In this document: piece after piece, positions 9,400 through 37,995 of the stretch
Layout: each line of letters starts with the position of its first letter
Position numbering within the stretch: the first letter of the stretch is position 1
Assembly: GCA_033286805.1 (NCBI GenBank)
Contig: GCA_033286805.1_4727.1
Reading direction: 5' to 3' (one strand)
Source: a phage
DNA length: 64,000 bases
The notes under the pieces: generated by a model
Databases searched by the model: none
Seen by the model: the letters and a program-made list of their open reading frames with translations, nothing else
Told to the model about the DNA's origin: nothing
Position numbers and translations under genes: made by a program

Positions 9400-11958
9400 T
9401 TACTGTTCGTCGCGTTCCAACAGATACTCGGAAGCGGTAATACCGTTTACCGTACGTACTGCTTTCAGACGAGTATCATCACTCAGAATCACGGTAACAG
9501 ATTGCAGACCTTTTACTTTGGTTTCGAAGGTCTTGAACACCTGATCCAGCATACGAGCAATGCTTGGGTTGGTTGCAGCCGATGCGTGGGTGTAACCGCT
9601 TTGGTTCAGCTTCAGAATCTTGGCGTTGGTCGGTACGCGAACAACAACATGCGGACGCATCGCGAACACGCTATGATTAAACCAGTAAGCATCGTTGCTA
9701 TCTTCGTCGGTAACGATGTCTGGATTAACACGCATATCCTCGACAGCCGCATCCGCCAAACGCCGTTCGATTTCGTCAGCATCCAGAGAGCCATCTTTCT
9801 CCAGTTCTGCACGATACTCACTCATGGCAACCAGATGACGTTCACGATTCGCAGCGGATTTTTCGTGAGCTGCTTTCAGGTAGTCATGCATGTTGTACAG
9901 TTCAGCCATGGAAAGACGAATGTTCCACTGACCTTCGCCATCACGATTGCAGTAGAGGCACTTCAGCATGTTGACCCAGGTATAGTAGCAATTGGAGAAT
10001 TCATCTTCAATGAACTTCTGGTCCATTTTAAGATCGTGAATCAGCCAACCGGACAGTTCTCCGATATCATCAACGAAGCTAGAGATGGTGGTTTCAGAGA
10101 AGTTCTTCGGTACGATACGTTTGATCAGCTTGTTAACGTCTTTGGTCATGCTATCGTTCAGGAAATGCCAGATACGCAGAGGAATGACATCTCGATACTG
10201 TTGCATGATCTGACGATAAGCTTTGATATCGTCGCTACGACCTTTATCAATAGACAACGCATCCAGGAATTCATGGATTGCATCCAGCTCTTTGTCGGTA
10301 TAGGTTCCCAGATAGGAATTGACGGTGGCCAGGAATGCTAATGCGTCGTTTTGGTTGACGTCGGTGTTGGTCTGCTGAATGATCGCTACTGAAGCTTTGG
10401 TTTCAGCATCCTCAACGCTTGACGCTGCGATCGCATCGGTGACGGTAAACAGTTTCATTTCGCGCTGCTCACCGACAACGATTGGCTCACGCTGAACCGG
10501 CTTGTTAAGGCTAACACGAACAACTTCTGCTTGCGCGATACGATCCAGTTTTGCCATTTCCTGCTCTGCCATACGACGAGCGGTTGGATCTGATTCAAGT
10601 TCGATGTATTCCACTTCTTCCTCCGTGAGGGATGTAATGTCAACAATGGTTTCATGAAGAATTCCGTTTTCGTCGATACGTGCTCGACGAGCGAAGTGCC
10701 TGAAGTCATACAACGTCGGCCAACGACTATTAGGTGCAAAGTCTTTGGCTTTCAGACGCATCTGCATAAATTCTTCATGTTGAACAACACGACCGTAACG
10801 CTTAGCATCTTCGGTCGCATCAATTGGATTAACGGTCTTTGTTGCCGTAGCGGAACGAGCCGTACGAACCGGTTCCGGTTTCACCTGCGCAGGTTCAGGT
10901 TGAACGGGTTTCTGCTGCCCAGCCTTAACATGCCATTCTGGCTCTTCGTACTGTTCAGCAAATTGCTCGGCCGCTGCAAAGATATCGTTGATACCACCAA
11001 TATCTCCTTCAGGATTTGTCGAATATACTCGTGGTTGCGGTGCCTCGTAACGCGGCGCTGCGGTAGCAGGCGCGGCATCAACGATAGGATCATCATCACC
11101 AACATCATACAAACGGTTGAACGCACAATCCTTCGAATCAATGTACGATGGTGTTTGTGGTTGGACAACCGTAGGTCGAGGTTGTGTGCCGTATCCTGGT
11201 GTTGTTGGAGCCATACCACGCATAACTGCAGGACTAGGTTGGTATTGCGGTTGTGGGTAGGTTCCACCATACATGGCGTACGCAGGCTGTTGTGGTTGAC
11301 CATACCCGTTGCTAACCATCGCACTTGCTTGCGGCCCACGATAAGTCATCCCCATCTGCATCACCTGCTGCTTCAAACCACGTGACTTCTGAGCGATTTG
11401 CGCTAGGCTTCCGCTTTTATTCAGCTGCGTGTACTTGTTCGCGGCTTCCGGGTTAATGCGTGATAATTCAATCGCGCGATAATATTCCGGGTACTGATTA
11501 GGTTCAAAGAGCCACGTTACAAGATGATACAGCGCAACTGTGCTCACAGCAGCAGAGACGATCTGGTCGTCGGACGCGTTCTGTGGCATCGGGTTGATGT
11601 AAGAGAACACGTTCCAACAACAGTCTTCAACAAGCGATTCCATCATCATATCGTTATTGGTATAACGTGCGACGAACTCGGTTTGTATTTTGTCTTGCTG
11701 AGCGAAGTCTTTCAGGACATTAAAGATGGCTTGACGGATTTTGACGATCGTCGCTTCTTGGGTGATGAAGTTATAGTTCTGCTGATATGAGGGTTGTTGG
11801 TATTGTGGTGGTTGATAGGCGTTATTCGGATATGCACCGTACGGCGATTGCTGATACTGCTGCTGACGAACCTGTTCAGCCGCATAATTAATCGTGCTCG
11901 CATAAGGGTTTTCGCTATAGCCCATTTGCTGATACATGTTGTTACTGCCATTATACAT
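9400..11958 (-). CDS. hypothetical protein (852 aa) with Q/Y/P-rich low-complexity N-terminus and a second Q/P/Y-rich region
   Basis: ORF track; AAGGA RBS; N-terminal about 65 aa and aa 200 to 272 are Q/Y/P/N-rich. Confidence 0.7.
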   Translation of the reverse strand: MYNGSNNMYQQMGYSENPYASTINYAAEQVRQQQYQQSPYGAYPNNAYQPPQYQQPSYQQNYNFITQEATIVKIRQAIFNVLKDFAQQDKIQTEFVARYTNNDMMMESLVEDCCWNVFSYINPMPQNASDDQIVSAAVSTVALYHLVTWLFEPNQYPEYYRAIELSRINPEAANKYTQLNKSGSLAQIAQKSRGLKQQVMQMGMTYRGPQASAMVSNGYGQPQQPAYAMYGGTYPQPQYQPSPAVMRGMAPTTPGYGTQPRPTVVQPQTPSYIDSKDCAFNRLYDVGDDDPIVDAAPATAAPRYEAPQPRVYSTNPEGDIGGINDIFAAAEQFAEQYEEPEWHVKAGQQKPVQPEPAQVKPEPVRTARSATATKTVNPIDATEDAKRYGRVVQHEEFMQMRLKAKDFAPNSRWPTLYDFRHFARRARIDENGILHETIVDITSLTEEEVEYIELESDPTARRMAEQEMAKLDRIAQAEVVRVSLNKPVQREPIVVGEQREMKLFTVTDAIAASSVEDAETKASVAIIQQTNTDVNQNDALAFLATVNSYLGTYTDKELDAIHEFLDALSIDKGRSDDIKAYRQIMQQYRDVIPLRIWHFLNDSMTKDVNKLIKRIVPKNFSETTISSFVDDIGELSGWLIHDLKMDQKFIEDEFSNCYYTWVNMLKCLYCNRDGEGQWNIRLSMAELYNMHDYLKAAHEKSAANRERHLVAMSEYRAELEKDGSLDADEIERRLADAAVEDMRVNPDIVTDEDSNDAYWFNHSVFAMRPHVVVRVPTNAKILKLNQSGYTHASAATNPSIARMLDQVFKTFETKVKGLQSVTVILSDDTRLKAVRTVNGITASEYLLERDEQ

Positions 11959-11992
11959 TTCTTACGATCCTTTTTATTTATTCGGTTATGTG

Positions 11993-13789
11993 TCAATCGA
12001 TTATGTCACGATCGTTAATTTCTACAATTTCTTCATCGAATCGACCGACGTCTTTCTTCAAGCCTGCATTGGTTGCTGCAACGTCATTTGCAATTTGTGG
12101 GGTAATGATTAACCGACCACGTTCGTCGATAGGTGCGTACATACTGAACTTTTGACGTCCGGTTGGTTCGGAGTGTGGAAGATTCAGATAGCTTGCACAG
12201 AACGGGATGGAACCACTAACCAAACGACTCTCGTCAGCCAATGCAGCACCGCCTGCGTTTTGGCTCTGGAGAACAACATGCGTGCTCACTTTGAACAGCA
12301 TGCAATCACCCGGTGACTGAATCGATGTTGCCACTTTCTCACGTTTATCACGATTGCTCTGGATATTGAGAATCGCTTCCGTTGCAACTTGATTTCGCAA
12401 CGCCTTCTGCACATCGCGATTGGTCATCTCTTTACGGTTGTTCTGTCGTTTGCCACGTTCTGTGGTTTTAAGATGGAACCCCAGTTTAAAGATGCTTTTA
12501 CGCACATCCTCCATGACATATTCCAACACCATCAATTCCTTACCGAACATCGTCGTGGTGTCAACACGACTCATTTCGATAGTAACATTGTCAATCAGAT
12601 ACGCCATAAATTCGTAGAAGTCGTCGCAAGGAATATTTTCCTGTTTGAACTTCTTCTGTTGAATTTCGTCAACGTAAAGATCGAGACTGTCGATGTGGTG
12701 GTTTACATCACGCAACAAACGCGCATCCGCATTGTTGTTATTAAAGATAATCAAACCGAGTAATGTACGCCAATGGTCTGGCGCATTTGCGAACTCCTCA
12801 ACCGGATAGTCTTCCGGAAAACGATCGTAATAACGGTCGATGAGATATAGGAACGCACCGACAAGGCCAAGAACAATACGTTCCGTGCCTCCACGTCTTA
12901 CAGCAATTTGAATATCAGGATGTTTGTAACGTACAGCGCTAGCGCTACGGCTTTTACCGCTTTTGCTGATACTAAAGCCTTTAGGAATAACCCCCATGGT
13001 GCGATAGATTACCCATTGGTCACGCGGAAAATCACGTTCAGCAAGGTTCCGTCCGGTTACGGCTTCGACACCTGCAAAACGTCGGAAACACTCACCCACC
13101 CCGTACTTCGCAAAGAGATAGTGACCCAGTGTGGTTACGCTGGTGTGGTTGATGTTGTCACCGTTCACTTTACTTTGTTTGGTAAGATGATAGATTTGCG
13201 ACCAGGGTAATGACAGGTAATGACGATAATCGATACCGGTCGGTGTATCATTGCTCAGGAACTGATACGGTGTACGTTTAACCGTGATTTTATCACGCGG
13301 AAGCATGATGAACGCCATGTCTTTCGTGTAACTGATTACGGGGTCAGCGAGTACCGCACTGAGAATGAAGTTCGCACCACGTAGACGCATTTTACCACCC
13401 TGACCTACCGCGGGTAATAGGAGAGGATGTCGGATAATGCAGTAGTCCTTTCCGGGTTCACGACGGTCGCCTGATTCCATCGCGCCGTACCAGCGGAATT
13501 CCAGCATCACCATAAACACATCGGAAGGCGCAAGGTCGAAGGTCAGCTTACCGCTATCCTTCCCTTTGGTTTTCTTTCCTCCGCTTAAGTAGTGGAACTG
13601 TTCGCGGGCCATACAGCGACGCAGGCCATGATACACCAGATCCTTAGGTAAACTATCTTTGCTGTTCCGCCAAAGACGATCAACATAGGACTCAACATCT
13701 TGCATCTTATCGACGACGATGTTGCGTGCTATCTTCTCGTTCATCTTCGGTGCAAGCTCAGCGACAGCTTTGCAGAATCTAGGATCCAT
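11993..13789 (-). CDS. hypothetical protein (598 aa)
   Basis: ORF track start 13792 is GTG; adjacent ATG at 13789 has AAAGGAG RBS at 6 nt spacing. Confidence 0.65.
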   Translation of the reverse strand: MDPRFCKAVAELAPKMNEKIARNIVVDKMQDVESYVDRLWRNSKDSLPKDLVYHGLRRCMAREQFHYLSGGKKTKGKDSGKLTFDLAPSDVFMVMLEFRWYGAMESGDRREPGKDYCIIRHPLLLPAVGQGGKMRLRGANFILSAVLADPVISYTKDMAFIMLPRDKITVKRTPYQFLSNDTPTGIDYRHYLSLPWSQIYHLTKQSKVNGDNINHTSVTTLGHYLFAKYGVGECFRRFAGVEAVTGRNLAERDFPRDQWVIYRTMGVIPKGFSISKSGKSRSASAVRYKHPDIQIAVRRGGTERIVLGLVGAFLYLIDRYYDRFPEDYPVEEFANAPDHWRTLLGLIIFNNNNADARLLRDVNHHIDSLDLYVDEIQQKKFKQENIPCDDFYEFMAYLIDNVTIEMSRVDTTTMFGKELMVLEYVMEDVRKSIFKLGFHLKTTERGKRQNNRKEMTNRDVQKALRNQVATEAILNIQSNRDKREKVATSIQSPGDCMLFKVSTHVVLQSQNAGGAALADESRLVSGSIPFCASYLNLPHSEPTGRQKFSMYAPIDERGRLIITPQIANDVAATNAGLKKDVGRFDEEIVEINDRDIID

Positions 13790-13828
13790 CACACACTCCT
13801 TTCAGAAAGTTGCTTAAGCAGATTAAAG

Positions 13829-15265
13829 TTACTTTTTCGATGACGCTTTCTCAAGAATCTTGAAAAAGGTCATACCTATACCGACAACAGCCGCGGTTAT
13901 GCTTGCAGCGGCTTTCCAAACATCGACGTTACGTTGACGTCGCGCTTCTTCCGCTTCACGTTGTCTTTTTGCCTCTTCATCACGTCGACGTATCTCAGCA
14001 GCAAACTCGTCGTGCTTACGTTTGGATTCTTCGTCTCGACGACGAAGTTCAGCGACGAATTCTTCATGTTTGCGTTTAGCCTCGTCATCACGACGTTTTA
14101 AATCAGCTTGATAATCTTCGTGTATTTGTTTACGTAGATCATCTTGACGCTTCATTTCGGCTTGGTGTTGTTCCATCCTACGTTTTTGTTCGTCTTTAAG
14201 CTGATCGAGTTCGGCTTTATGTTGTTCATCACGCAGCTTTGCGTCGGCGCGATGCGCCTCATGCATCTGTGCGATAACTGCCTTGTGTTCATCCGCCATA
14301 CGTCGCATTTCAGCCATCACCCCTTTAAGGGTTTCTTCTGATGCCTTACGTTCGTAGCTACGTTGGTCGAAATCATTTTTGTAGGCTTCTTTTTGGATGG
14401 GGTCGCGCCAATGTAATGCCGATTCACGTGTCGGAAAAACATTGTACTTCCACATCTCTTTTTCCAAATCTTCGACCGGTACGAAGATGGAGTCATTATT
14501 ACCGAAGGTAACCAACATACCTGGCGCACCTGCTCCATTCGTTGGTTTTATTTCGAACGCTTTCCCCAGCACGTTAACCCATAAGCTATACGGATTATGA
14601 AAGTCGGGTGGCGTCCAATGGATAGTGAGTTGCGTTCCGAGAATCCGGAAACCCTCTGTTTTTCCCGTCAAGCTCCGCGCGCACGTTGCGATGTAGGGGT
14701 GATCAATCCCTTTCGTAACGTGGTCTGCGCTTTTGTATTCTCCTTTAACTTTTACGATTGCCACGTTGATTTGCGCGACATAAGCGGGTTGATTAAAGTT
14801 CAGCGTGTTGAGGTCAATTTGACATATTTCATCCAGCGTATCGTACCAGTCTTGCTGGTCTAATAGACGCGGCATTTTCTCTGTGTTAACAATACGACGG
14901 ATATGCGGTTTCCTTATCGCGTAACCTGTGCCGTTTTTAACACGGAGTATATCCCGACGTCTACCCGCGTAGACGAAGTTTCTGAATGCACCATTCGCAT
15001 TAGATACGTCATGGCTGTCAACTATTACAGGACTACGAAATTTTGAACGTCGTACGATCCTGAATGTATTGCCGTCCTCAACCCTACCAGGAATGTACTG
15101 GAACATATTGTCGGAGGTGATAACCAACACGGTATGGCCAGATTCATTAATACATGCCCATCCTAATTCCAGGTCATATAACGGTTCGGCATAACCGTCA
15201 ATGCGATATGCGTGCGTACCATCCCACGGTTCGAACGCGGTATCACATATTGGCATGGAGGGCAT
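13829..15265 (-). CDS. hypothetical tail-anchored coiled-coil protein (478 aa)
   Basis: ORF track start is TTG; ATG at 15265 has GGAGG RBS; globular N-terminal region, K/R/E/D-rich heptad-like region with 18-aa repeats, then hydrophobic segment AAASITAAVVGIGMTFFKIL near the C-terminus. Confidence 0.6.
   Translation of the reverse strand: MPSMPICDTAFEPWDGTHAYRIDGYAEPLYDLELGWACINESGHTVLVITSDNMFQYIPGRVEDGNTFRIVRRSKFRSPVIVDSHDVSNANGAFRNFVYAGRRRDILRVKNGTGYAIRKPHIRRIVNTEKMPRLLDQQDWYDTLDEICQIDLNTLNFNQPAYVAQINVAIVKVKGEYKSADHVTKGIDHPYIATCARSLTGKTEGFRILGTQLTIHWTPPDFHNPYSLWVNVLGKAFEIKPTNGAGAPGMLVTFGNNDSIFVPVEDLEKEMWKYNVFPTRESALHWRDPIQKEAYKNDFDQRSYERKASEETLKGVMAEMRRMADEHKAVIAQMHEAHRADAKLRDEQHKAELDQLKDEQKRRMEQHQAEMKRQDDLRKQIHEDYQADLKRRDDEAKRKHEEFVAELRRRDEESKRKHDEFAAEIRRRDEEAKRQREAEEARRQRNVDVWKAAASITAAVVGIGMTFFKILEKASSKK
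13925..14090. repeat. about 2.5 tandem copies of a 54-bp unit inside the coiled-coil gene
   Basis: repeated protein unit RRRDEE(A/S)KRKH(E/D)EF(V/A)AE(L/I); the DNA units are near-identical. Confidence 0.55.
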
Positions 15266-15415
15266 CGTCAACCTCCATCTGATTGAAAACTATCACGCAT
15301 AATACATTTCCCTTTTCTTGTTCTTATCAAGCCGACAGCCGACGGTTTCAGCATCGTTCCTAGCGCGAGAACGACCTTACGTGTTGTCTATGCCTTATTC
15401 ATCGAAGGCGTCTGT

Positions 15416-15473
15416 CACCTAGGTAATGTAAGCGTCAAATTTTTTCTATTCGCAACGATAAACGGCATAGAAA
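15416..15473 (-). promoter_or_regulatory. conserved roughly 60-nt intergenic element, copy 1 (CACCTAGGTAATGTA ... GCATAGAAACC), upstream of gene 13829..15265
   Basis: shares the CACCTAGGTAATGTA box and the CATAGAA box with copies at 21897 and 59195; sits immediately 3' (on the minus strand) of a GC-rich hairpin. Confidence 0.45.
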
Positions 15474-15502
15474 CCTCCCCCAACCCTTACGGGCTGAGGG
15501 AG
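15474..15502 (-). terminator. GC-rich hairpin downstream of the candidate capsid gene (CCTCCC...GGGAGG)
   Basis: inverted repeat with inner CCC-TTAC-GGG; lies between the capsid stop (15603) and the next promoter-like element. Confidence 0.5.
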
Positions 15503-15602
15503 GCTGACTTATGTATCACGGTGCCGGATGAATGTCCGGTGCAATGAAACCATCCGCAACGTTGTCGTCAAGAATATCATCCAACGAAGCAGCTACGGTA
15601 GT

Positions 15603-17825
15603 TCAGTTAGTCTGAACCGGCAGCTTGATGTTTTCAGTGTAGACCTTACGCAGGTTCACAACGTTAATCAGACCCAGCAGCGGGCAGTTGTTAACGAAGC
15701 GGCAGCGCGGCTGAACCATGGTTTCTTTAGAAACCTGACCGTTACGGGTAACCTGAGCAACAGATACCAGTTCCGGTACATACAGGAACATACCGAAGGT
15801 CAGCGGATCCGGAGAACCCTGGATACCACGAGACAGGGTCACGAAGATCTTATCGCGCAGCATGACGTTCGGGTTATCTACAACCACGAAGTTGAAGCTT
15901 ACACCAACGGTACGGAAATCGCCATCGGTCTGCAGGAACTGCGGGATGTAGTTGTCAGTTGCTACTACGCAACGCGGTTTCTCATCAGCGTTGGAAGACA
16001 GCAGCTGCAGAGCTGGCTGATAACCAGACTCAGAGTACATGCGGTATGCCATTTCACGAATCACGTTCATGATCGCAGCAGACACTTCAGCACGACGTTC
16101 TGCGGTGGTGGTACCCTGAACAGATTTCTCCAGGTCCAGGTTGATTTCTTCGAACCACGGACGGATCAGGTAACGACCGAAACCTTCGATCTGGATGTCA
16201 CCGAACTGACGGAAGCGAGAGGTCGCAACCGCTTTCAGTGCGTCTTTGTAGCTGAACAGTTTCTCAACCATCAGGTTGTCGAAACGTGCGTTAGCAGCTT
16301 GGATCAGAACGTCCAGGTCAGCAGCGTTTTCTTCCCAATCCAGCGGACGAGGAATGGAGAACGGAGCCAGCAGGCCGATTGCGTAACGTTCTTGCTTCAT
16401 GTTGAAGTCAAGGTGCTTACCGCGCTCACGACGGTTGCTGTTGTTACGGCGGATACGCAGTTCGTAACCAACCAGTTTGAAGCTCAGGTCTTCAGCCAGT
16501 TGTTTGAACTCTTCGCTCTTACGCGGTTGTTCGATGTTGTCCTGATCAACCAGGCGATACAGTTCAGCGTTAGCGCCGTTAACACGCAGACCCGCTTTCT
16601 CTACGTTGGAAGAACCGTAAACTTCGATCGCCAGCTGAGCAGCAGATTTCGCATCGATGATGTCCTGCAGCGCTTCAGCTTTCGCACCTTTAACGTCTTT
16701 GGTGTTCTCATCAACGAAGATGGAGTGAGTGTCGAACGCCAGGGTCATTTTGCGGAAGTCGCCTTCCAGGGATTTCTGGAAACCGTTGGTGATCAGACCA
16801 GATACGTCGAACGGTACGTAAGAGGTTTTGCTGTGCTTGGTAGATTTGATTTCCACCAGGATTTTGGTCAGCGTGATCTGGGCGTCCAGCGCGTCGGTGT
16901 TGTCGCTGTAACCGTTAGCCAGGATGCTATCGTCTTCAGCGATACCGATCATGTCGATCAGTTTATCAACAGCCAGGTAAGACGTTTTATAAGTTACGCC
17001 TTTAATTTCGATGTCACGCGGAGCAACGATAGTTTTGTCAACGAAGTACTGCGCGTTAGCATCGTCAGCACGATAGATCGGATGCAGATCGGTCACGTCG
17101 TTGGACAGAACGTCGTTGTACATGAACGCATCCAGCAGCGGACGACGTACCCAATCAGCCGGAGTACCGTCAGCGTTACGACGCAGGTGGTTGAACACCA
17201 GCGGACGACGGAAAGATACATCATAACCGATCTGGTTCGGAGCCAGAACGATGGTGTTGTACAGTTCGTTACCCATGCGGCTCAGACGAGAAGCCTTCAC
17301 GTTGAACACAACGGAGTACGGCATCATGTCACGCAGTTCTTTCTGGTCGTAGGACAGCTGAACCAGTTCTTCAGATTCGCAACCGCAGGAATCAGCAGCC
17401 ATCATGACGAAGTTAGAGCTATCGACTTCACGGCCAGACGGAGTGGTGCTGATGTTCATGGAACGTGCTTGTTTAGCATATTCCACCGGGTTGCCATGAG
17501 CCAGCATGATCAGTGCTGCTGCACGAGCCTGCTGTGCGTTCATGGTGAACAGCTGTTCTTCAATACGCTGCTTCTCTTCCGGAGTGGTGGTTTCGAAGCC
17601 CAGCATGGACAGAACCGGTTCTTCGGCTTTACGGATGTCGCTGCTGAAGCTCTTAACATCCATTTCGTTAACCAGTTTGTCCATGGATTTGAAATCAACC
17701 TTAGAAGCAGATTCCATAGACAGGAAGGTGTTCTCCAGACCTTTGTCTGCTGGTTTGCTACCATTAGCGGTCAGGAACTGGCGAGTGGCCGCGACCTGTT
17801 GGCTAAGAAGGGTTTTATCATTCAT
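15603..17825 (-). CDS. candidate major capsid protein (740 aa); alternative is tail sheath
   Basis: strongest codon bias in the window (CTG, CGT, GGT, GAA, AAA) indicating very high expression; the 740-aa size is in the range I recall for phiKZ-like major capsid proteins; AAAGGA RBS; hairpin immediately downstream; N-terminal region contains S/A/G-x-E sites compatible with prohead-protease processing. Confidence 0.55.
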   Translation of the reverse strand: MNDKTLLSQQVAATRQFLTANGSKPADKGLENTFLSMESASKVDFKSMDKLVNEMDVKSFSSDIRKAEEPVLSMLGFETTTPEEKQRIEEQLFTMNAQQARAAALIMLAHGNPVEYAKQARSMNISTTPSGREVDSSNFVMMAADSCGCESEELVQLSYDQKELRDMMPYSVVFNVKASRLSRMGNELYNTIVLAPNQIGYDVSFRRPLVFNHLRRNADGTPADWVRRPLLDAFMYNDVLSNDVTDLHPIYRADDANAQYFVDKTIVAPRDIEIKGVTYKTSYLAVDKLIDMIGIAEDDSILANGYSDNTDALDAQITLTKILVEIKSTKHSKTSYVPFDVSGLITNGFQKSLEGDFRKMTLAFDTHSIFVDENTKDVKGAKAEALQDIIDAKSAAQLAIEVYGSSNVEKAGLRVNGANAELYRLVDQDNIEQPRKSEEFKQLAEDLSFKLVGYELRIRRNNSNRRERGKHLDFNMKQERYAIGLLAPFSIPRPLDWEENAADLDVLIQAANARFDNLMVEKLFSYKDALKAVATSRFRQFGDIQIEGFGRYLIRPWFEEINLDLEKSVQGTTTAERRAEVSAAIMNVIREMAYRMYSESGYQPALQLLSSNADEKPRCVVATDNYIPQFLQTDGDFRTVGVSFNFVVVDNPNVMLRDKIFVTLSRGIQGSPDPLTFGMFLYVPELVSVAQVTRNGQVSKETMVQPRCRFVNNCPLLGLINVVNLRKVYTENIKLPVQTN

Positions 17826-17974
17826 TGAAAGTATCCTTTACAGAATTAACTTATATAAGTCGGTCGATAGACCATAGCGTACACGCGTGCATGCGCCACT
17901 ATAGTATCAGTAAACACTTACCGTTGTTTAGGCTGTGATACAACACTAAAAATGCCGCATAACTTTTCCCTACG

Positions 17975-18595
17975 TCATAAACGACGCAGGCGATAATGGA
18001 TGGAACGATTGGTGCAATATGAACGGAACAGCGGCAATTGCGCAACTTCCGCAAGACTCATATTAATTCGCAGGTGTTCAATAACGGCGCTGTAGTTATC
18101 AGCAATACGATCGCTCAATAACTCTTCTGCCAATAAAGGAAGACAATCGACAACAATCGCGATCACATCCTCATTAACATAACGCACCCGAACACTCAAC
18201 GGACGTTTGTCTGGGCTGTAAGTTGGATCCGCCAAACGACGTTCAATATCACGCGGATAGCTCGTCAGTAAATGGTAATAACCATTGTCATAACGATTGA
18301 TGTACTCACACAGCACATCAACATTCTTCTCTGGCGGCAAACCTGTTTCGTCATAGTGATACGCAAACATACCACCAAGCAGGTTGTTAAGATGAACTGC
18401 AGGGTTCGCTTGTTCGTGTTCTTTCGTGATGAAGAAAGGCACGTTTTGAGCTGCGAAATAAAAACCTACATCATTGGGCGATAGTATGCCGAAAAGACTT
18501 TTAGGGTCTAATAACACCTGTAAGTCATCACGCGCATTTCGAATAATCGCGTGTTCTACCCAATTCGGAACGACGAGATATCGGAGTTCCTTCAT
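17975..18595 (-). CDS. hypothetical protein (206 aa)
   Basis: ATG at 18595 with AGAGGT RBS; divergent from the helicase-like gene. Confidence 0.6.
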   Translation of the reverse strand: MKELRYLVVPNWVEHAIIRNARDDLQVLLDPKSLFGILSPNDVGFYFAAQNVPFFITKEHEQANPAVHLNNLLGGMFAYHYDETGLPPEKNVDVLCEYINRYDNGYYHLLTSYPRDIERRLADPTYSPDKRPLSVRVRYVNEDVIAIVVDCLPLLAEELLSDRIADNYSAVIEHLRINMSLAEVAQLPLFRSYCTNRSIHYRLRRL

Positions 18596-18634
18596 TATGA
18601 TTACCTCTTTGCAAGTATCGAAAGGATTGAGTCG

Positions 18635-20245
18635 ATGGACCCAAAACAGATAGCCATTAAGATTATTACGTTACTGTTTCGTAATGCACAATTGAACCAT
18701 CCCGATCCCAGTACGATCGAACATGTTAAATCCGTCTTAGATAAAGTCGAACCCCCGAAAAACCATCTCGCTACAGACGTAGATAGAGAGGTTTTCAGCA
18801 ACCTGATGAACACCATTCATTGGATGCTGGAACAACCGTTATCGGAACCTTTCGATAAACAACAGTTGTTACAAAGGATACGTTTAGATTGCCTTGAACA
18901 AAGCAATCTTTACGAGATTCTTGCCGACGGACTGTACGATATCGAAGACGACGCTCATATCAGTAAGGTCTGTTCGCTCTATTACAACGAATTACGTAAT
19001 CTGATTACCCGTCGTCGTGTTTTCGAAACCTTTAGAAACACGTACATGGATATCAGTAACGGGCGACTTGGGGATAAAGAATTTTTCGATGCGATGGCGA
19101 ATCTGAAATTATCGCTAGACAGTATCGAAATGGATACCGAAAATCCCGAAGAGATGGCGTGTATGATTGACGGCTTTATCGCTGACAGCGAAGACGATAT
19201 CGAGAAAGTCGAACGTATGTTCGTCAAAGCGATGGAACGTAACAGTCCTGAAGGTGGATTTGTAACCGGCTGGCAAGGCTTTAATAAAATGTTGGGGTCG
19301 GTCGGTGTTTTACGTCGCGGTACCTTAGGACTGATTGGTGCAATGCAGCACCGGAACAAGTCAGGCGTGTTGTTAAAACTGTTCACACATCTGGCATTGT
19401 ACAACAAACCCCATTTCTTTTTCCCGGAGCGAGCAAAGAAAGCATTACTGATTCATTTGTCGACAGAAAACGAAGTGGAAGAAAACACGCTTCAGATATA
19501 CAAGAACATGCGAGAACAGGAAACAGGCGAATATGTCGATATTCGTAAGATTGACCCTCGCGAGGCATCACGTTATGTGTTGAAGGTGTTCAACGATGCG
19601 GGTTTCTCTGTTTGTATGCGTCGTGTTGATGGGATGAGTTACAAACAACTCGCTAATCTCATCGACCATTTCGAACGCATGGGTTATGAGGTCATGGCGT
19701 TGTTCATCGACTATCTGAAAATGTTCTCATCGGAAGGGCTGGATAGAAATGGACCGACCGGCGCATGGCTCCAAGAACTCTTTAACAAAGTCCGTAACCT
19801 CTGCAGCGTTAAACGTATTTTAGGTATGACCGTACACCAGCTGTCATCCGATGCGAAGATGCGTGCACGTGATGGCAACGATGAAGAGTTCGTTGACCAA
19901 GTCGCAGGTTTAAGTTACTGGGATGGTTGTAAAGGGATTGACCGTGAGATTGACCTCGAAGTGATTGTTGATATCGTTAAGGAACCGGGCAAACGTCAAA
20001 GCTGGCAGGTCTTTGCGTTAGGGAAAGACCGTCAACCGGATAACGGTTCAACGAAACCTGAAGACAAACATTTCGCGATGCCATTCCAAACCATCGGGAT
20101 GCTTCCTGATGATTACGGTAAGAAAGCAGTATATTGCCGCAAGGTTGGCGGACAACCTGTCTCCGAGGGAGGTAAAGGTCCGTGGAACAAGTTCGATGAA
20201 AACGCAGCACCGAGTAATGAATTACAATTTGATTTAGAATTTTAA
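18635..20245 (+). CDS. putative DnaB-like (SF4) replicative helicase with degenerate P-loop
   Basis: ORF track start 18551 is GTG and overlaps the divergent gene; ATG at 18635 has AAGGA RBS; motifs MALFIDYL (Walker B / H2-like), VHQLSSDAKMR (H3-like SQLNR), GAMQHRNKSG in the Walker A position. Confidence 0.45.
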   Translation: MDPKQIAIKIITLLFRNAQLNHPDPSTIEHVKSVLDKVEPPKNHLATDVDREVFSNLMNTIHWMLEQPLSEPFDKQQLLQRIRLDCLEQSNLYEILADGLYDIEDDAHISKVCSLYYNELRNLITRRRVFETFRNTYMDISNGRLGDKEFFDAMANLKLSLDSIEMDTENPEEMACMIDGFIADSEDDIEKVERMFVKAMERNSPEGGFVTGWQGFNKMLGSVGVLRRGTLGLIGAMQHRNKSGVLLKLFTHLALYNKPHFFFPERAKKALLIHLSTENEVEENTLQIYKNMREQETGEYVDIRKIDPREASRYVLKVFNDAGFSVCMRRVDGMSYKQLANLIDHFERMGYEVMALFIDYLKMFSSEGLDRNGPTGAWLQELFNKVRNLCSVKRILGMTVHQLSSDAKMRARDGNDEEFVDQVAGLSYWDGCKGIDREIDLEVIVDIVKEPGKRQSWQVFALGKDRQPDNGSTKPEDKHFAMPFQTIGMLPDDYGKKAVYCRKVGGQPVSEGGKGPWNKFDENAAPSNELQFDLEF

Positions 20246-20270
20246 ACGCAAAAAAAAAGATTGTGCGGTT

Positions 20271-20302
20271 CCCTCCTCCAACCCGTAAGGGAAGGAGGAG
20301 GG
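20271..20302. terminator. bidirectional GC-rich hairpin between convergent genes (CCCTCCTCC / AACCCGTAAGGGAA / GGAGGAGGG)
   Basis: perfect 9-bp stem; A9 run upstream on plus strand (T-run after the hairpin for the minus-strand transcript); GTTATGACC follows on plus strand. Confidence 0.6.
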
Positions 20303-20318
20303 GTTATGACCGCTTTGA

Positions 20319-20645
20319 TTAACTTATTGTCATGAATTCATTAGGTGAAAATTTCCAGCCGTTCTCAGTGAGAAGCGTGTTGAGTTTCGCTGCAACGATA
20401 AGCCACGCATGCATGGCTGTTACATCGTATTGGCGATTCACTCGACGTTGGTTTTCGATATTGATTTGCTCCTGTTCAGTGATGTTTGGATAAAGTGCGA
20501 TAGCGCTAGGTTTACCCAGCGCGCTAGTCATCACCGCCGTACATTCACTGATAATGTTGTTTAAGTGGTAGTTATACACCGTTCCACGCATGACGCGATG
20601 ACGGCATTCGATAATAGCGTCGTAAATGATTTCTCGAGTAATCAT
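20319..20645 (-). CDS. hypothetical protein (108 aa)
   Basis: ORF track; ATG; 6-nt gap from the upstream gene (operon). Confidence 0.5.
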   Translation of the reverse strand: MITREIIYDAIIECRHRVMRGTVYNYHLNNIISECTAVMTSALGKPSAIALYPNITEQEQINIENQRRVNRQYDVTAMHAWLIVAAKLNTLLTENGWKFSPNEFMTIS

Positions 20646-20651
20646 GATAAT

Positions 20652-21053
20652 TTAAAACATACGGTCGTTTTTAGCACGGGCGTTCATTACCAGATCGTAG
20701 ATGCCTGCGGTTCGTAAGCACTCTTCGTAGTAACGATGTGCGCCTTCATCAGCCATCCACGATAACCCACGGCTATCCGCAACAATAACCAGTTTGTTAT
20801 TGTTGAACGCACACACCACACGGTAGGTCGCGTTGTTATTCGGGTCGCGAGTGATAAGTTCGTAGACGCCGTTAACAGGTTTACTGAATTCGCCATTTAA
20901 CGGAACGAGTTCGGTAGTACCTTCAGCAAACGTTACGTTGATCGGTGATGGATCTTTAGCGATAACAGTATATTCCACATTGTGTTCTTTACTGGTCATA
21001 ATACCGAAGTAAGAACTGACAGGGGAACGTGGTACACTAAGAATATTAAACAT
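20652..21053 (-). CDS. hypothetical protein (133 aa)
   Basis: ORF track; AAGAGGA RBS. Confidence 0.55.
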   Translation of the reverse strand: MFNILSVPRSPVSSYFGIMTSKEHNVEYTVIAKDPSPINVTFAEGTTELVPLNGEFSKPVNGVYELITRDPNNNATYRVVCAFNNNKLVIVADSRGLSWMADEGAHRYYEECLRTAGIYDLVMNARAKNDRMF

Positions 21054-21123
21054 AGATGTTGTCCTCTTAATTGGATTTAGATTGTTGGGTGTGTAATTGA
21101 GAAATGAAAACGTTGTTTCGGTT

Positions 21124-21693
21124 TTAGACGATGAGTGACCAGGTGGTAAGCACCCCGCTTGCGAATTCGAGCTTAAGACGTTTACCGATAAGTTGTTGTT
21201 GGATCATCTTCTCAGTGATACGTCGATCTTGCTGAACCGCTTTATCAAACGCTTCTTTTGCTTCAGCTTGGTAGAAGTTCGTTTCTTCGTTTTCGTCGAT
21301 CTCTTCGAGAGCATCCTCGTCGATGTCAGCAAGTTTCACTCGACCGTTTTCATCAGGTTGTTCTGCAGGTTCATTGTCATACGGCGTGTCTTTTGTTGGT
21401 GCGACACGATGTTGCAACTCGACCTGTGTTAACATGATCTCCATCTCACCATCGATAGGAATGATTTCATCGGCGCTGCCGTTTTCGGTCAGCTCTCGAC
21501 TTTCCAGTAATGTCGTCGTAACAGAGAACACCTCTTCAACAGGAACCTCATCATCGTCGATGGTGTTAACCGTGTTGCTGGTAACTTCGGCAACAACCAT
21601 CAAATCAAATGCGTGAGGGTCACCTGGCATTTTGATGCCTGGAAGTTTGTTGAGGTACCAAGGATCAAGAATCATGATTTCTGGATTAAACAT
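21124..21693 (-). CDS. hypothetical highly acidic protein (189 aa)
   Basis: ORF track; D/E about 24% of residues with few K/R; first gene downstream of a conserved promoter-like element. Confidence 0.6.
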   Translation of the reverse strand: MFNPEIMILDPWYLNKLPGIKMPGDPHAFDLMVVAEVTSNTVNTIDDDEVPVEEVFSVTTTLLESRELTENGSADEIIPIDGEMEIMLTQVELQHRVAPTKDTPYDNEPAEQPDENGRVKLADIDEDALEEIDENEETNFYQAEAKEAFDKAVQQDRRITEKMIQQQLIGKRLKLEFASGVLTTWSLIV

Positions 21694-21875
21694 CGTATTT
21701 TACCTTTCTATGTTAGGTGGATTGCGGATAGAAGAATCAATGCATAGATTGATCGTTCTATGTTAGAAATTATTGCCGAACTGGTTATGGTTATAACGCG
21801 TGTTTTCGTATGCTGACGGGTCGCGTATTAATAAGGTCATGACTGTATCCTCGATTATTAAGAGAAATTTACAAC

Positions 21876-21955
21876 GATAACAGTAACCGCTGTTATCACC
21901 TAGGTAATGTAGTCGCGAAATAAACTGGAGTAATGCGAAATAAGACAGCATAGAA
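21876..21955 (-). promoter_or_regulatory. conserved roughly 60-nt intergenic element, copy 2, with abutting 8-bp palindrome GATAACAG-N6-CTGTTATC
   Basis: near-identical to the copy at 59174..59253 (CACCTAGGTAATGTAGTCGCGAAATAAACTG...CGAAATAAGACAGCATAGAACC). Confidence 0.5.
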
Positions 21956-21987
21956 CCCTCTCCCAACCCAGCAGGGAAGGGAGAGGG
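21956..21987 (-). terminator. GC-rich hairpin (CCCTCTCCC / AACCCAGCAGGGAA / GGGAGAGGG)
   Basis: perfect 9-bp stem immediately after the stop of gene 21994..22626; followed on the minus strand by TTCTATGCTGTCTTATTTCG. Confidence 0.55.
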
Positions 21988-21993
21988 AATATA

Positions 21994-22626
21994 TCACCAA
22001 TGATCGAAGGAACCAGGAGTGTTACGAACGATCTCAACTTGGAAGGTTATTGGTACTGATGGCAATGAAACATATTCGCGTTGCGATAGCAGGACGTTGT
22101 CTTCTCGCTCATCGATGCGAGTAGAACCCGTCAGAAATTGGAACATAGCGACTTGAAGCTCATCGGTGAAACGGAGGTACTCACCGATGTGTGGTGTTGC
22201 ATCATATCGAATAAGTACGTTGCCAAACCGTCGTGCGATATTTGGAGTATCTGTGAACGAAACAGGGAAATCCAAAGTCATTCCCATCGTTTCACCTGGC
22301 TTCATTTTCCGAATCGACGCAATTGGCGCGTCGAAGATATTCCATTCTTCTTTCATCGTGTCTGGAAACACACCGCGATACAAGATGGTCTTTTGATGAC
22401 GATGAACGGGTTGTAAACGGTCAACCAATATTTTCAAAGGTTTAAGTTCTTCAGCCAATTCATAATCTGCTTGGATGTTCCACTTTGCCGCAAGTTCCAT
22501 TAGGTTGGGATACGCGCTATATTTATTGACGATAGCCCAGTTAACATTACGCAAATCGATAGGAAGGAATTTGATAATTTCCTTGTTGAATATCCATTGG
22601 TTTAATTTCTTAATCTTCGAAAGCAT
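21994..22626 (-). CDS. hypothetical protein (about 210 aa)
   Basis: ORF track 21994..22815 would overlap the upstream gene by 170 nt; internal ATG at 22626 lies 16 nt after the upstream stop; start uncertain. Confidence 0.5.
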   Translation of the reverse strand: MLSKIKKLNQWIFNKEIIKFLPIDLRNVNWAIVNKYSAYPNLMELAAKWNIQADYELAEELKPLKILVDRLQPVHRHQKTILYRGVFPDTMKEEWNIFDAPIASIRKMKPGETMGMTLDFPVSFTDTPNIARRFGNVLIRYDATPHIGEYLRFTDELQVAMFQFLTGSTRIDEREDNVLLSQREYVSLPSVPITFQVEIVRNTPGSFDHW

Positions 22627-22642
22627 GATGTACTCACTACAG

Positions 22643-24010
22643 CTAAACGGTTGGACGAACGGTGTTGTCTTTTTCTGGTGCAAGCCATAACGTGACCGTA
22701 CCATGACATGTCCACTGTGGCTCACGTACAGAAGAACCTGCCATCGTAACAGCACAATCGGTACGCATGATAACCCCGTATGCTTCGCAGAGATTGTTAT
22801 CCTGCATCCACACAACTTTAGCAGGCATGCCGGGATACAACAAATCCATGTTTGCGTATTCCCACACCAACTGCATTGTTCTACCGCGTAATCCAGCAGT
22901 ATTGCTTAATTCACGCCATCGGTTATCGGTTACGCGTCCCATCCCTTTCGCCACCTTCACGTTATCGCTACGTTCTTCAGTTACGTACTCGCTAACGTTT
23001 ACGGTACGACTGATTATCGTATCACCCCCTTTTGATAATGTCATTCCCTGACTCATCTGACTTGCCGAAACAAAACGCCCGCCCGCATTACCTAACAACG
23101 AAGCCGCGTTATTGATGTCGCTTACCGACGCCCCTCTCGTACAGGCAATTTCCACGTATTTGTCACGATTGATCCAGGTCTTGTCCATGCCCGGAAACAT
23201 ATCGGCAGGATAGTTGTAAAAGATAGCCGTGCGCCGACCGTCAGAGAAACGGGTTTCGTCATAGAGAGGATAAATATACAGATACGGAGATTGGTAATAA
23301 CAACCGACATCCGCTGAATAAATACCGACCTGGTTCTGGATTTTGTCTACGAGATCCATTGCGTTGGTACCGTGCGGAAGAATAAGCAACTTGAACAGGT
23401 TGTCGTTATTCGGTGCAACAATATCCACACCCTGCATTTTGAATCCGGTGTCGGCTTCAACCGCAGAAAGTATTTTGCTGAATTCGAGCCGTAACACATC
23501 CAGAACTTTCGACCCGGTATAGTTTTCACCGGTTTCTGATTGCATGAAGCTTTCAAGAACAGGATCGAACAGTTGAAATTGAAGATCGACCATTTGCTCG
23601 TAGTCTTTCTTCGAAGAATCGGTTGCGGTACGTTCGTCGGTAGCAGACATACGACTGTCTACGGTTGTTAAACAAACCGCTCGGTAGACGTAAGCTTGTG
23701 CGGCATCGTCTACGGTTTGGCGTTGTCCGCGCATCAGGCTGTACGCCTGCACGATGATGCGCATTTTAAGTTGTTGTTGGTATGGTAGAATGTATTTTCC
23801 GTAACTGCCCGGTGGGAACTTTACAGAAATATAAAGTTCATCCCCTGCGTTACGTTCATAGTCTCGATACGTGTGGACTTGAGTCACTAAAGGAACAGAC
23901 ACCGTCATTGACGGCGTGATTAATTCCGCGGTGACTTTATACGCAACAGCAACTGCTTCCTGCGCAAATGTACCGATATACCGTCCTAACGGCGTCTGTT
24001 TGTAATCCAT
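22643..24010 (-). CDS. hypothetical virion-module protein (455 aa)
   Basis: ORF track; part of a tightly packed or overlapping minus-strand operon 21994..27859. Confidence 0.65.
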   Translation of the reverse strand: MDYKQTPLGRYIGTFAQEAVAVAYKVTAELITPSMTVSVPLVTQVHTYRDYERNAGDELYISVKFPPGSYGKYILPYQQQLKMRIIVQAYSLMRGQRQTVDDAAQAYVYRAVCLTTVDSRMSATDERTATDSSKKDYEQMVDLQFQLFDPVLESFMQSETGENYTGSKVLDVLRLEFSKILSAVEADTGFKMQGVDIVAPNNDNLFKLLILPHGTNAMDLVDKIQNQVGIYSADVGCYYQSPYLYIYPLYDETRFSDGRRTAIFYNYPADMFPGMDKTWINRDKYVEIACTRGASVSDINNAASLLGNAGGRFVSASQMSQGMTLSKGGDTIISRTVNVSEYVTEERSDNVKVAKGMGRVTDNRWRELSNTAGLRGRTMQLVWEYANMDLLYPGMPAKVVWMQDNNLCEAYGVIMRTDCAVTMAGSSVREPQWTCHGTVTLWLAPEKDNTVRPTV

Positions 24011-27859: not shown

Positions 27860-27910
27860 CGCAGATTCCTGTTTGAAAGATAAGATATCACATGATGGTC
27901 GACAGCATAA

Positions 27911-27932
27911 AGCCCACCCCGAAGGGCGGGCT
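27911..27932 (-). terminator. GC-rich hairpin (AGCCCACCC / CGAA / GGGCGGGCT) after the 1128-aa gene
   Basis: imperfect 9-bp stem with CGAA loop; followed on the minus strand by TTATGCTGTC. Confidence 0.5.
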
Positions 27933-27947
27933 GTTTATGCGTACGGA

Positions 27948-33741: not shown

Positions 33742-33848
33742 TTGGGACTCCTACGTAGGAAAATCTTGGCGGGTGATCATGTCCGCCATTTACCTTCTGA
33801 ACCGTTGATTCAGAAGTCAAAAGATAACCGGATACCAACGTCATAAAA

Positions 33849-33880
33849 CCTTCCTCCAACCCAACAGGGAAGGAGGAAGG
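33849..33880 (-). terminator. GC-rich hairpin (CCTTCCTCC / AACCCAACAGGGAA / GGAGGAAGG)
   Basis: perfect 9-bp stem after the stop of gene 33891..35180; followed on the minus strand by TTTTATGACG. Confidence 0.55.
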
Positions 33881-33890
33881 GATATAGTGG

Positions 33891-36506: not shown

Positions 36507-36554
36507 GTGTTGTCTCCAGTAATGATTCAAAAGATAAACCTGAGCGGCATAGAA

Positions 36555-36586: not shown

Positions 36587-36608
36587 AATATGTCAGTTTA
36601 TTAACTGA

Positions 36609-37931: not shown

Positions 37932-37995
37932 AATTTGTTTCCTTTACAATAAATTGCACATTAGCTAATGCGGCTTAAGTGAACCATCAGCCCAC

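Follow-up and report, generated by a model that had tools for sequence, protein, structure and literature searches.

The gene at 15603..17825 on the minus strand of the window, which is the whole stretch of 64,000 nucleotides of phage DNA analyzed here, is identified from its sequence as that of a phiKZ-type major capsid protein, with nothing contradicting the assignment. The explanation that best accounts for the locus as a whole, to which we give a probability of about 97%, is a Goslar-type major capsid protein gene with codons selected for expression, a set-up of TATG boxes and a terminator, and a long antisense frame that is without function.

Identification of the major capsid protein gene

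15603..17825, minus strand: major capsid protein gene, ortholog of Goslar gp41 (HOV27_gp041), 740 aa plus TGA stop, ATG start

A preliminary description of this DNA had proposed the 740-aa product of the gene at 15603..17825 (minus strand) as a candidate major capsid protein and had noted a 766-aa open reading frame on the opposite strand, at 15528..17828 (plus strand); both frames were found as described. In a profile search, the 740-aa protein matched the Pfam family PF25620 (PhiKZ_MCP) with a score of 725.7 bits (cut-off, 27; E 5.3e-218), its residues 98-731 being aligned on positions 2-635 of the 635 positions of the profile, and it also matched PHROG 3231, “major head protein,” with an E value of 2.3e-164. 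End-to-end matches were obtained with the 740-aa chains named “Major capsid protein” in the PDB entries 11bt, 11fg, 11mk, and 11ml, the full-length match with 11bt scoring 1640 bits, and weaker matches to structure chains were those of 8bfl and of phiKZ gp120 (8y6v). The comparison with phiKZ gp120 recommended in the preliminary description places the two proteins in the same family by profile, with a phmmer E value of 2.7e-55 to 8Y6V. The tblastn search gave 99.6% amino acid identity to Goslar gp041, and at the nucleotide level the genes are 98.9% identical in a gap-free alignment. The candidate capsid protein is, therefore, borne out by PF25620, PHROG 3231, and the identity to Goslar gp41. 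Homologs of the protein are present in 226 phage records, its 90% cluster has 249 members, and a search of IMG/VR with the protein returned just three near-identical loci and none of intermediate divergence.

The surroundings of the gene agree with those in Goslar. The window is 98.3% identical to Goslar DNA and collinear with it across gp031-gp081, and the neighbors of the capsid gene are the homologs of gp040 and gp042, in the order kept from Goslar. Judging from these alignments, the window belongs to a nucleus-forming jumbo phage of the Goslar type within the Chimalliviridae, either a Goslarvirus or something closely related to that genus, with E. coli or Salmonella as the host.

Fold, copy number, and processing of the capsid protein

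Three lines of evidence, namely cryo-EM, mass spectrometry of the virion, and GFP localization, have established that the Goslar capsid is built from gp41, which, according to mass spectrometry and model building, also outnumbers every other structural protein in the virion (Goslar structure paper). It adopts the HK97 fold, and 1,615 copies of it make up each T=27 capsid (PDB 11BT, 11FG, 11MK, 11ML). All but 3 of the 740 residues of the protein encoded in the window are shared with the chains of 11bt (C3 hexon) and 11fg (C5 penton), which their depositors describe as having the canonical HK97 fold; through this identity, the HK97 fold, with its N-arm, P, A, and I domains, would be expected for the window's protein in both hexons and pentons. 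The HK97-like fold that the preliminary description had named as a check on its proposal was, accordingly, found in Goslar gp41, which is 99.6% identical and has a solved structure.

It is vanishingly improbable that the product of the gene is not the shell subunit but the contractile tail sheath or some other abundant protein of the virion. The size and the high expression of the gene are what that reading has in its favor, and a sheath would share them; the protein, however, matched solely capsid families in Pfam and PHROG, with no match to a sheath family in either collection, near-identical chains have been built into the hexon and penton maps of the capsid, and the sheath (gp218) and the tube (gp217) of Goslar are encoded elsewhere in the genome (Goslar structure paper). 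A contractile-sheath identity, which the preliminary description had itself given as the outcome that would overturn its proposal, is ruled out by the solved structure of Goslar gp41.

As a capsid protein, the product can be divided into two parts.

17355..17825, minus strand: presumed N-terminal propeptide, residues 1-157 (the 583-aa chain of PDB 36za begins at S158)
15606..17354, minus strand: mature HK97-fold subunit, residues 158-740, with N-arm, P, A, and I domains and C-arm (residues 1-583 of 36za; the modeled part of 11bt)

The domain description of the mature subunit is taken from the Goslar structure paper, where residues 1-157 of gp41 are without density in the capsid maps. Two candidate protease motifs, G148-C-E150 and S151-E-E153, can be read in the sequence shortly before S158. 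The motif S/A/G-X-E is said to have been described for the prohead protease by Thomas et al. in 2012. By analogy, a propeptide of about 160 residues is presumed to be cut off by the prohead protease, at an exact site that we infer. By near-identity to Goslar gp41, a precursor of 740 residues would be made, the first ~157 residues would be lost at prohead maturation, and the remaining HK97-fold subunit would build a T=27 capsid, in both its pentons and its hexons, at about 1,615 copies per virion. For the phage of the window itself, the sole support for the abundance of the capsid protein is the extreme codon bias of its gene.

The capsid gene is already known, in that the structure, the copy number, and the fold have been published for a phage differing at three residues. 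The identical protein is also found in E. coli and Salmonella assemblies, where its NCBI records still carry the name “hypothetical protein.” These entries could receive the capsid name; beyond correct annotation, the identification matters little.

Codon usage

The capsid gene has a frequency of optimal codons (Fop) of 0.871, calculated with a literature-based list of E. coli optimal codons, and this value is the highest among the 46 window genes mapped onto Goslar. Its effective number of codons (Nc), 30.1, is the second-lowest of the 46, after the 29.1 of the gp058 homolog and before the 40.5 of the next gene; the 44 other genes have Nc values of 40-56 and Fop values of 0.45-0.69. The strongest codon bias in the window, as the preliminary description had it, thus belongs to the capsid gene by Fop, whereas by Nc the gene is in a near tie with the gp058 homolog. 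Leucine is encoded by CTG in 64 of 67 cases, serine by TCT, TCC, or AGC only, arginine by CGT or CGC only, and glycine by GGT or GGC only, and the favored codons include GCT, GTT, CGT, GGT, TCT, AAA, and GAA. The only gene with comparable bias, the gp058 homolog, encodes a PF12699 internal head protein, and Goslar gp058 is among the most abundant proteins of the virion (Goslar structure paper). Near-absolute optimization for E. coli is, in this window, confined to the genes of the shell subunit and the internal head protein, both of which are head proteins of very high abundance.

The high demand for the protein late in infection would select for the codons that E. coli translates best, and we suppose that these are used nearly exclusively because so much capsid protein is needed at that stage. 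Should the bias instead reflect recent horizontal acquisition or a local anomaly of composition, unusual base composition would be expected, and some is seen: the GC3 of the capsid gene, 0.59, exceeds that of most window genes (0.35 to 0.55), and the 16-18 kb segment, with a GC content of 0.504, is the GC peak of the window. The preferred codons, however, are not simply those ending in G or C but the ones classically seen in E. coli genes with high expression; the gp058 homolog is equally biased at an ordinary GC3 of 0.49; the capsid gene belongs to the core of its family and has been passed on vertically, with homologs in those 226 phage records; and the major capsid protein homologs of phages with other hosts are strongly biased too (Nc 25-33). 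Acquisition or local composition is, for these reasons, a very unlikely source of the bias, and selection for translation efficiency is preferred. The window as a whole was also scanned for tRNAs and for Rfam families, without a match. The two strongly biased genes represent a clean case of translational selection, in which a phage with its own transcription depends on the ribosomes and, at least within the window, the tRNAs of the host.

Putative signals for transcription and translation

Three short elements precede the capsid gene and a hairpin follows it.

17834..17838, minus strand: Shine-Dalgarno-like AAGGA, 8 nt before the ATG, read from the sequence
17873..17876, minus strand: TATG box, candidate late promoter of the non-virion RNA polymerase (the G would be +1), 48 nt upstream, read from the sequence
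17958..17961, minus strand: second TATG box, possible additional promoter, 133 nt upstream, read from the sequence
15462..15505, minus strand: predicted phiKZ-type intrinsic terminator, with a 15-bp C-rich/G-rich stem and a GUAA loop (15472..15505), followed by TC and TATGCCGT

The AAGGA is invariant in four relatives, and the same motif or a close variant of it (GAGGT, GGAGA, AGGGA) lies a few nucleotides before the start in all eight of the distant homologs compared, which suggests that a good ribosome-binding site serves the capsid gene. The TATG box that had been reported upstream of the gene is present twice, at 17873..17876 and 17958..17961, and the first of these is invariant in the four relatives. 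Two TATG in the 149-nt upstream spacer are not significant alone, given a window mean of 2.6 per kb per strand. Upstream of eight distant major capsid protein genes, however, 15 TATG occur in 1,033 nt against 4.6 expected (P = 8.5e-5); the expectation was derived from base composition, and the rate in coding sequences was rejected as background because TAT codons are scarce in the biased capsid genes. In phiKZ, the late promoter consensus is TATG, with the G as the start site (PMC4666361), and three consecutive promoters serve the capsid genes of phiKZ and 201phi2-1 (PMC11512511). The non-virion phage RNA polymerase probably transcribes the capsid gene from one or both TATG boxes.

The preliminary description had also placed the gene between terminator hairpins, which holds on the downstream side, where the region with the 15-bp stem folds with z = -4.8, but not on the upstream side, where a consensus terminator scan came up empty and the 149-nt spacer, folding no better than shuffles (z = -1.6), contains no convincing terminator hairpin. 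The downstream element is identical in four relatives and is one of three near-identical copies in the window, where none is expected, among about 10 similar elements. In 46-nt fold scoring it is, at -29.7 kcal/mol, the most stable of its type; the element at 55203, folded separately, has -31.2 kcal/mol. It fits the phiKZ terminator motif ...GGGRRGGBYTTATKYYGT with one additional spacer base (PMC10914365). From this motif identity, the downstream hairpin appears to be a real phiKZ-type terminator, at which the capsid transcript would end.

Simple scans were of limited use here, since transcription in these phages relies on polymerases of their own and on terminators with short T-runs. A consensus terminator scan of 15000..18700 called no terminators, the downstream hairpin being missed because its T-run is short, and a sigma-70 scan of the same region found 2 weak promoter-like sites, below the number in shuffles. 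A strict scan for bulge-free hairpins plus TATG, which found 2 sites against 4.6 expected, was too crude, and the family of elements was recovered instead by a scan that combined the sequence motif with folding. The idea that hairpin and TATG form fused terminator-promoter modules was dropped, since the TATG belongs to the published phiKZ terminator motif; such elements may nevertheless have a dual role as terminator and promoter.

The antisense reading frame

15528..17828, plus strand: antisense “shadow” ORF, 766 aa, from the ORF list; codon-aligned antisense frame, not a gene

The antisense ORF, whose stop-to-stop span is 15498..17828 (777 codons), is a by-product of the codon choice of the capsid gene and has no function. 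In a codon-aligned antisense frame, stops can arise only from TTA, CTA, or TCA in the sense gene, the reverse complements of which are TAA, TAG, and TGA; the frame is open because the capsid gene uses none of the three among its 119 leucine and serine codons. The remaining two antisense frames contain 27 and 44 stops. The gp058 homolog likewise has opposite it a full-length open antisense frame, of 448 codons, and in eight major capsid protein homologs of ~30% identity the codon-aligned antisense frame contains 0, 0, 0, 0, 0, 1, 2, and 7 stops against 16-46 in their other antisense frames.

A real overlapping gene held open by selection might be suspected from the length of the frame, which is the longest at the locus and exceeds the capsid gene itself (766 vs 740 aa), from how improbable its openness is (P = 1.2e-12) given the average codon use of the window's remaining genes, from the plus-strand TATG at 15510..15513, 14 nt before the antisense ATG, and from the same frame being open in several distant major capsid protein genes; long antisense overlapping genes have, moreover, been claimed in Pseudomonas and E. 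coli (PMC8850804, PMC9927249). The comparison with close relatives largely refutes such a gene. The frame is open in the window and in two of three close relatives (L005 and L006), but in Goslar, at 98.9% nucleotide identity, it is interrupted by a stop that results from a single synonymous change at codon 130, from TCT to TCA. Of the 25 differences between the window and Goslar, 23 are non-synonymous in the antisense frame, where dN/dS is 3.4, a value similar to those of the antisense frames of other genes (0.6 to 7) that gives no sign of purifying selection, in contrast with the sense dN/dS of 0.04. The openness is, furthermore, wholly due to the three missing non-optimal codons and recurs opposite the unrelated gp058 homolog, and TATG is common, with 333 occurrences in the window. 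The predicted 766-aa protein has a composition that is not protein-like (13% V, and 0.5% or less each of K, M, P, and W) and matches no family in Pfam or PHROG, its exact sequence is absent among a public collection of 15 billion proteins, and no Shine-Dalgarno sequence was seen by eye before its ATG. An overlapping gene is, therefore, extremely unlikely, and the dismissal of the frame as an artefact in the preliminary description is upheld by the Goslar stop, the non-synonymous differences, the want of a family match, and the recurrence opposite the gp058 homolog. We consider it just as improbable that the antisense capsid frame of chimalliviruses, open in 5 of 8 distant homologs, is used as a transcript or a protein in some lineages, with the TATG at 15510..15513 as a start signal. 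As a by-product of codon choice, the frame has a practical consequence, which is that a gene caller following the rule that the longest ORF wins would place the capsid gene on the wrong strand (766 aa vs 740 aa), and the internal head protein gene carries the same risk.

Comparison with known systems

The closest counterpart of the capsid protein is gp41 of Escherichia phage vB_EcoM_Goslar (YP_009820726.1; also 36ZA), which likewise has 740 aa, 737 of 740 being identical; the differences from it are S73T and M74L in the propeptide and T265A. The genes differ further by 22 synonymous changes, and the antisense frame is open here and broken in Goslar because codon 130 is TCT here and TCA in Goslar. 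The upstream spacer of Goslar differs at a few bases, whereas the terminator element is identical.

With phiKZ gp120 (PDB 8Y6V) and the family PF25620, the protein would have in common the HK97 fold with an inserted I domain, T=27, and the processing of an N-terminal propeptide, although the sequence identity to phiKZ gp120 is only about 26%. The candidate TATG promoter motif is also like that of phiKZ, and the conserved hairpin, a predicted terminator, belongs to the same sequence family as the terminator of phiKZ, whereas the host of phiKZ differs and the set of preferred codons is, therefore, another. The conserved terminator motif of phiKZ is 5'-BCCYCCCCHWWDGGGRRGGBYTTATKYYGT-3' (Putzeys et al. 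2024, PMC10914365), a C-rich/G-rich stem-loop directly followed by T-T-A-T-K-Y-Y-G-T, and the capsid copy in the window reads ...GGGGGAGG TTTC TATGCCGT. It departs from the motif in its longer stem (15 bp, with an inner CCC/GGG helix) and in one extra spacer base, whereas other elements of the window, such as GGGAAGGGCTTTATGCCGT, fit the motif exactly.

The antisense frame resembles the frame -1 “shadow” ORFs (Merino et al. 1994; Silke 1997; Mir et al. 2012, PMC3454372) in being a stop-free, codon-aligned antisense frame, and long ORFs of this kind are attributed to codon usage in PMC3454372, which cites Merino 1994 and Silke 1997. Its 766 codons make it unusually long compared with the known examples, a consequence of the length of the sense gene and of a bias that is all but absolute; nothing else about it is special.

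Identity of the capsid gene product

Two overlapping ORFs, whose coordinates agree exactly with those of the preliminary description, are considered here:
15603..17825 (-): 740-aa ORF with an ATG start, the capsid gene
15528..17828 (+): 766-aa ORF on the opposite strand, the antisense ORF

Window positions 10000..24000 are 98.3% identical in nucleotide sequence to Escherichia phage vB_EcoM_Goslar (NC_048170, 237 kb) over 95% of their length, and 46 window genes are collinear with Goslar gp031-gp081, after which the homologs are named below. The 740-aa protein covers the whole profile of Pfam PF25620, "Bacteriophage PhiKZ major capsid protein gp120" (725.7 bits; cut-off 27), matches PHROG 3231 "major head protein", and is 99.6% identical to Goslar gp041 (gp41), with S73T, M74L and T265A as the sole residue differences. 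Its matches in the PDB are end to end for 11bt, 11fg, 11mk and 11ml ("Major capsid protein", 740 aa) and include the 583-aa chain of 36za, which begins at S158; remoter ones are 8bfl (E 6.6e-62) and phiKZ gp120, 8y6v (E 2.7e-55). Goslar gp41 is the major capsid protein, present in 1,615 copies in a T=27 capsid ~147 nm wide, and has the canonical HK97 fold with N-arm, P, A and I domains and C-arm, an assignment consistent with mass spectrometry and GFP localisation (bioRxiv 10.64898/2026.04.21.720040). The capsid assignment proposed from the sequence alone is therefore correct, and a tail sheath fold, named at that time as the competing outcome, is excluded because the Goslar sheath is gp218 (bioRxiv 10.64898/2026.04.21.720040).

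No density was seen for residues 1-157 of Goslar gp41, and proteolytic processing of the phiKZ kind has been suggested as the reason (bioRxiv 10.64898/2026.04.21.720040). Near-identity to Goslar gp41 shows that the product builds the shell of a T=27 jumbo-phage capsid as its HK97-fold subunit; it would be synthesised in a longer form, of which the mature shell lacks the first ~157 residues. The prohead protease cleavage motif is reportedly S/A/G-X-E, as is said to have been described by Thomas et al. in 2012, a work that the Goslar paper cites; the protease might cut the precursor after E150 or E153.

The identical protein occurs on 57 public contigs. Among them are NCBI entries labelled as E. 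coli or Salmonella enterica (serovar Typhimurium), on contigs of up to 243 kb, in which it is called "hypothetical protein". The cluster of this protein at 90% comprises 249 sequences, including some from other Salmonella serovars. Bacterial-isolate assemblies therefore contain complete genomes of Goslar-like phages, owing to a carrier state, to contamination or to a wider host range.

Codon bias

The capsid gene has an Nc of 30.1 and the highest Fop (fraction of E. coli-optimal codons), 0.871, among the 46 mapped genes. The optimal-codon list behind Fop is reportedly that of Ikemura and of Sharp and Li. Only the gp058 homolog, 36609..37931 (-), is comparable (Nc 29.1, Fop 0.857); the next Nc among the 46 is 40.5, and the rest extend up to 56. 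The claim that the capsid gene has the strongest codon bias in the window thus stands for Fop and comes to a near tie for Nc.

Codon use of the capsid gene
Leu: CTG 64/67
Ser: TCT, TCC, AGC only
Arg: CGT, CGC only
Gly: GGT, GGC only
Phe: TTC 35, TTT 0
Asn: AAC 44, AAT 2
Ile: ATC 33/38
Ala, Val: GCT, GTT favoured

This is the classical pattern of a highly expressed E. coli gene and not a simple GC3 shift. A tRNA scan found no tRNA genes in the window. The gp058 homolog, a phiKZ-type internal head protein (PF12699), likewise shows near-absolute use of E. coli-optimal codons and lacks TTA, CTA and TCA; gp58 is among the most abundant Goslar virion proteins (bioRxiv 10.64898/2026.04.21.720040). 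Near-absolute host-optimal codon use is common to these two genes only; as one encodes the shell subunit and the other an internal protein of the head, both very abundant, it fits selection for translation efficiency.

The antisense ORF

The antisense ORF lies in a stop-to-stop open frame of 777 codons (15498..17828), and its end, ...CAT TGA, faces the ATG of the capsid gene, which places it in the codon-aligned antisense frame, where stops can come only from sense TTA, CTA and TCA. None of these occurs among the 67 Leu and 52 Ser codons of the capsid gene (P = 1.2e-12 if codons were used as in the other genes of the window), and the open frame is therefore not due to chance; the codon bias of the capsid gene accounts for it fully. 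The remaining two antisense frames are interrupted by 27 and 44 stops.

If the ORF were instead a real overlapping gene, the TATG at 15510..15513 (+), 14 nt ahead of its ATG, might serve it, but TATG is common (333 in the window, two strands together), no ribosome-binding site was seen ahead of that ATG, and five tests argue against such a gene. Codon 130 is TCA in Goslar and TCT in the window and two IMG/VR relatives, a single synonymous change that puts a stop into the antisense frame. The 25 nucleotide differences from Goslar are mostly synonymous in the sense frame (22/25; dN/dS 0.04) and mostly non-synonymous in the antisense frame (23/25; dN/dS 3.4), as is the pattern opposite all other genes. 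The unrelated, equally biased gp058 homolog, used as a control, also has a full-length antisense open frame, 36609..37952 (+), of 448 codons, with a listed 390-aa ORF at 36780..37952 (+); the antisense frames next in length face gp038 and gp053, both on the more strongly biased side of the genes that are left. In eight capsid homologs of ~30% identity (Nc 25-33), the codon-aligned antisense frame is broken by 0, 0, 0, 0, 0, 1, 2 and 7 stops and the other antisense frames by 16-46. The antisense product itself has no Pfam or PHROG match, is odd in composition (Val 13%; Lys, Met, Pro and Trp each ≤0.5%), and its exact sequence was not found in a 15-billion-protein collection. The frame thus bears no signature of selection, and its initial treatment as an artefact was justified.

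Transcription signals

The capsid gene was described as lying between terminator hairpins, of which the downstream one is real. The region 3' of the gene folds much better than shuffles (z = -4.8) and contains a hairpin at 15472..15505 (-), with a 15-bp stem and a GUAA loop, after which come TC and TATGCCGT; four relatives carry the element unchanged. GGGTTGGGAGAGGGTTCTATGC is present in three copies at ≤3 mismatches, where none is expected, and some ten C-rich/G-rich hairpins between genes, each pointing the same way as its upstream gene, precede TATKYYG or a near variant. Hairpin-preceded sites number 17 against an expectation of ~6, with every strong one in an intergenic region.

Predicted terminator elements (hairpin plus TATG-type 3' motif)
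15462..15505 (-): 3' of the capsid gene
21946..21998 (-): approximate span
27903..27955 (-): approximate span
about 33839..33890 (-)
36545..36597 (-): approximate span; directly 3' of the gp058 homolog, phiKZ-type
44819..44871 (+): approximate span
about 55155..55206 (+)
55677..55729 (-): approximate span
59244..59296 (-): approximate span
59745..59797 (-): approximate span

These elements fit the conserved intrinsic terminator motif of phiKZ, 5'-BCCYCCCCHWWDGGGRRGGBYTTATKYYGT-3', mapped by ONT-cappable-seq (PMC10914365), and 201phi2-1 has a closely similar motif. The capsid gene is therefore followed directly by a conserved terminator element of a known, phiKZ type, where its transcription would end; a simple consensus terminator scan did not call this hairpin because its T-run is short.

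Across the family, TATG(C/T)(C/T)G or a close variant lies 1-4 nt past the hairpin, and three elements have a near-identical 40-nt sequence in common. The Goslar record annotates terminators for only some of them, and the TATG inside an element may double as a late promoter for the following gene. The annotated start codon (21949..21951) of the 62-aa gp047 homolog, 21763..21951 (-), is the ATG within the TATG of the 21946..21998 element; either this start or the gene itself is doubtful, or the transcript would be leaderless.

No terminator was found upstream, where the 149-nt spacer is no more stably folded than its shuffled versions (z = -1.6) and has no such motif. The TATG box reported there is present in two copies, and an AAGGA ribosome-binding site lies 8 nt ahead of the capsid ATG:
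17873..17876 (-): TATG, 48 nt before the capsid ATG
17958..17961 (-): TATG, 133 nt before the capsid ATG

In phiKZ, the late promoters of the non-virion RNA polymerase have the consensus TATG, with the start site at G; the motif is required but does not suffice (PMC4666361). Two copies in 149 nt are unremarkable within the window, where TATG averages 2.6 per kb on each strand overall and 5.7 per kb in the spacers upstream of genes. The 1,033 nt ahead of eight distant capsid genes contain 15 TATG against 4.6 expected from base composition (P = 8.5e-5), and three consecutive promoters have been reported for the phiKZ and 201phi2-1 capsid genes (PMC11512511). The capsid gene therefore probably has a late promoter of the TATG type, and the phage non-virion polymerase would transcribe the capsid gene late from these boxes.

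The gp040 homolog and differences from Goslar

The capsid gene is separated by a 337-nt spacer, unusually long for the genome, from the next gene, the gp040 homolog (13829..15265 (-), 478 aa), whose product has a long, repeat-like C-terminal half rich in Lys, Arg, Glu and Asp, a hydrophobic C-terminal segment and no Pfam or PHROG match. The stretch separating the gp047 and gp048 homologs measures ~690 nt (21952..22642) in the window and only 39 nt in Goslar; the insert carries an ORF listed as 21994..22815 (-), overlapping the end of the gp048 homolog and without a Pfam or PHROG match.

The DNA polymerase ORF, 53359..55110 (+), encodes 583 aa and spans the PHROG 3011 profile from end to end. 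The Goslar annotation gives gp068 a length of 499 aa and places the NUMOD1/HNH endonuclease gp069, then gp070 and gp071, after it; at the DNA level these three match nothing in the window. In their place, 55200..56950 holds ORFs 55209..55682, 55733..56128 and 56169..56933, all (-) and without a family match. This suggests that the polymerase gene of Goslar has been truncated or split by a homing-endonuclease insertion that the window lacks.

Synonymous divergence from Goslar is uneven across the window, by a factor of about ten, with dS = 0 for the gp052 homolog, ~0.03-0.06 around gp039-gp044, capsid gene included, and 0.2-0.35 for the gp051, gp057, gp067 and gp074 homologs. The variation suggests mosaic recombination among Goslar-like phages, and constraint on synonymous sites may also contribute in the two head-protein genes.

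Comparison with known systems

The capsid finding itself is already known, as family, fold, structure and role have been published for a protein three residues different, and the terminator motif and the shadow-ORF effect are described phenomena. What the present analysis offers is a correct annotation and a clean shadow-ORF example of the kind that Merino 1994 and Silke 1997, as far as they are discussed in PMC3454372, ascribed to sense-gene codon usage for long frame -1 ORFs.
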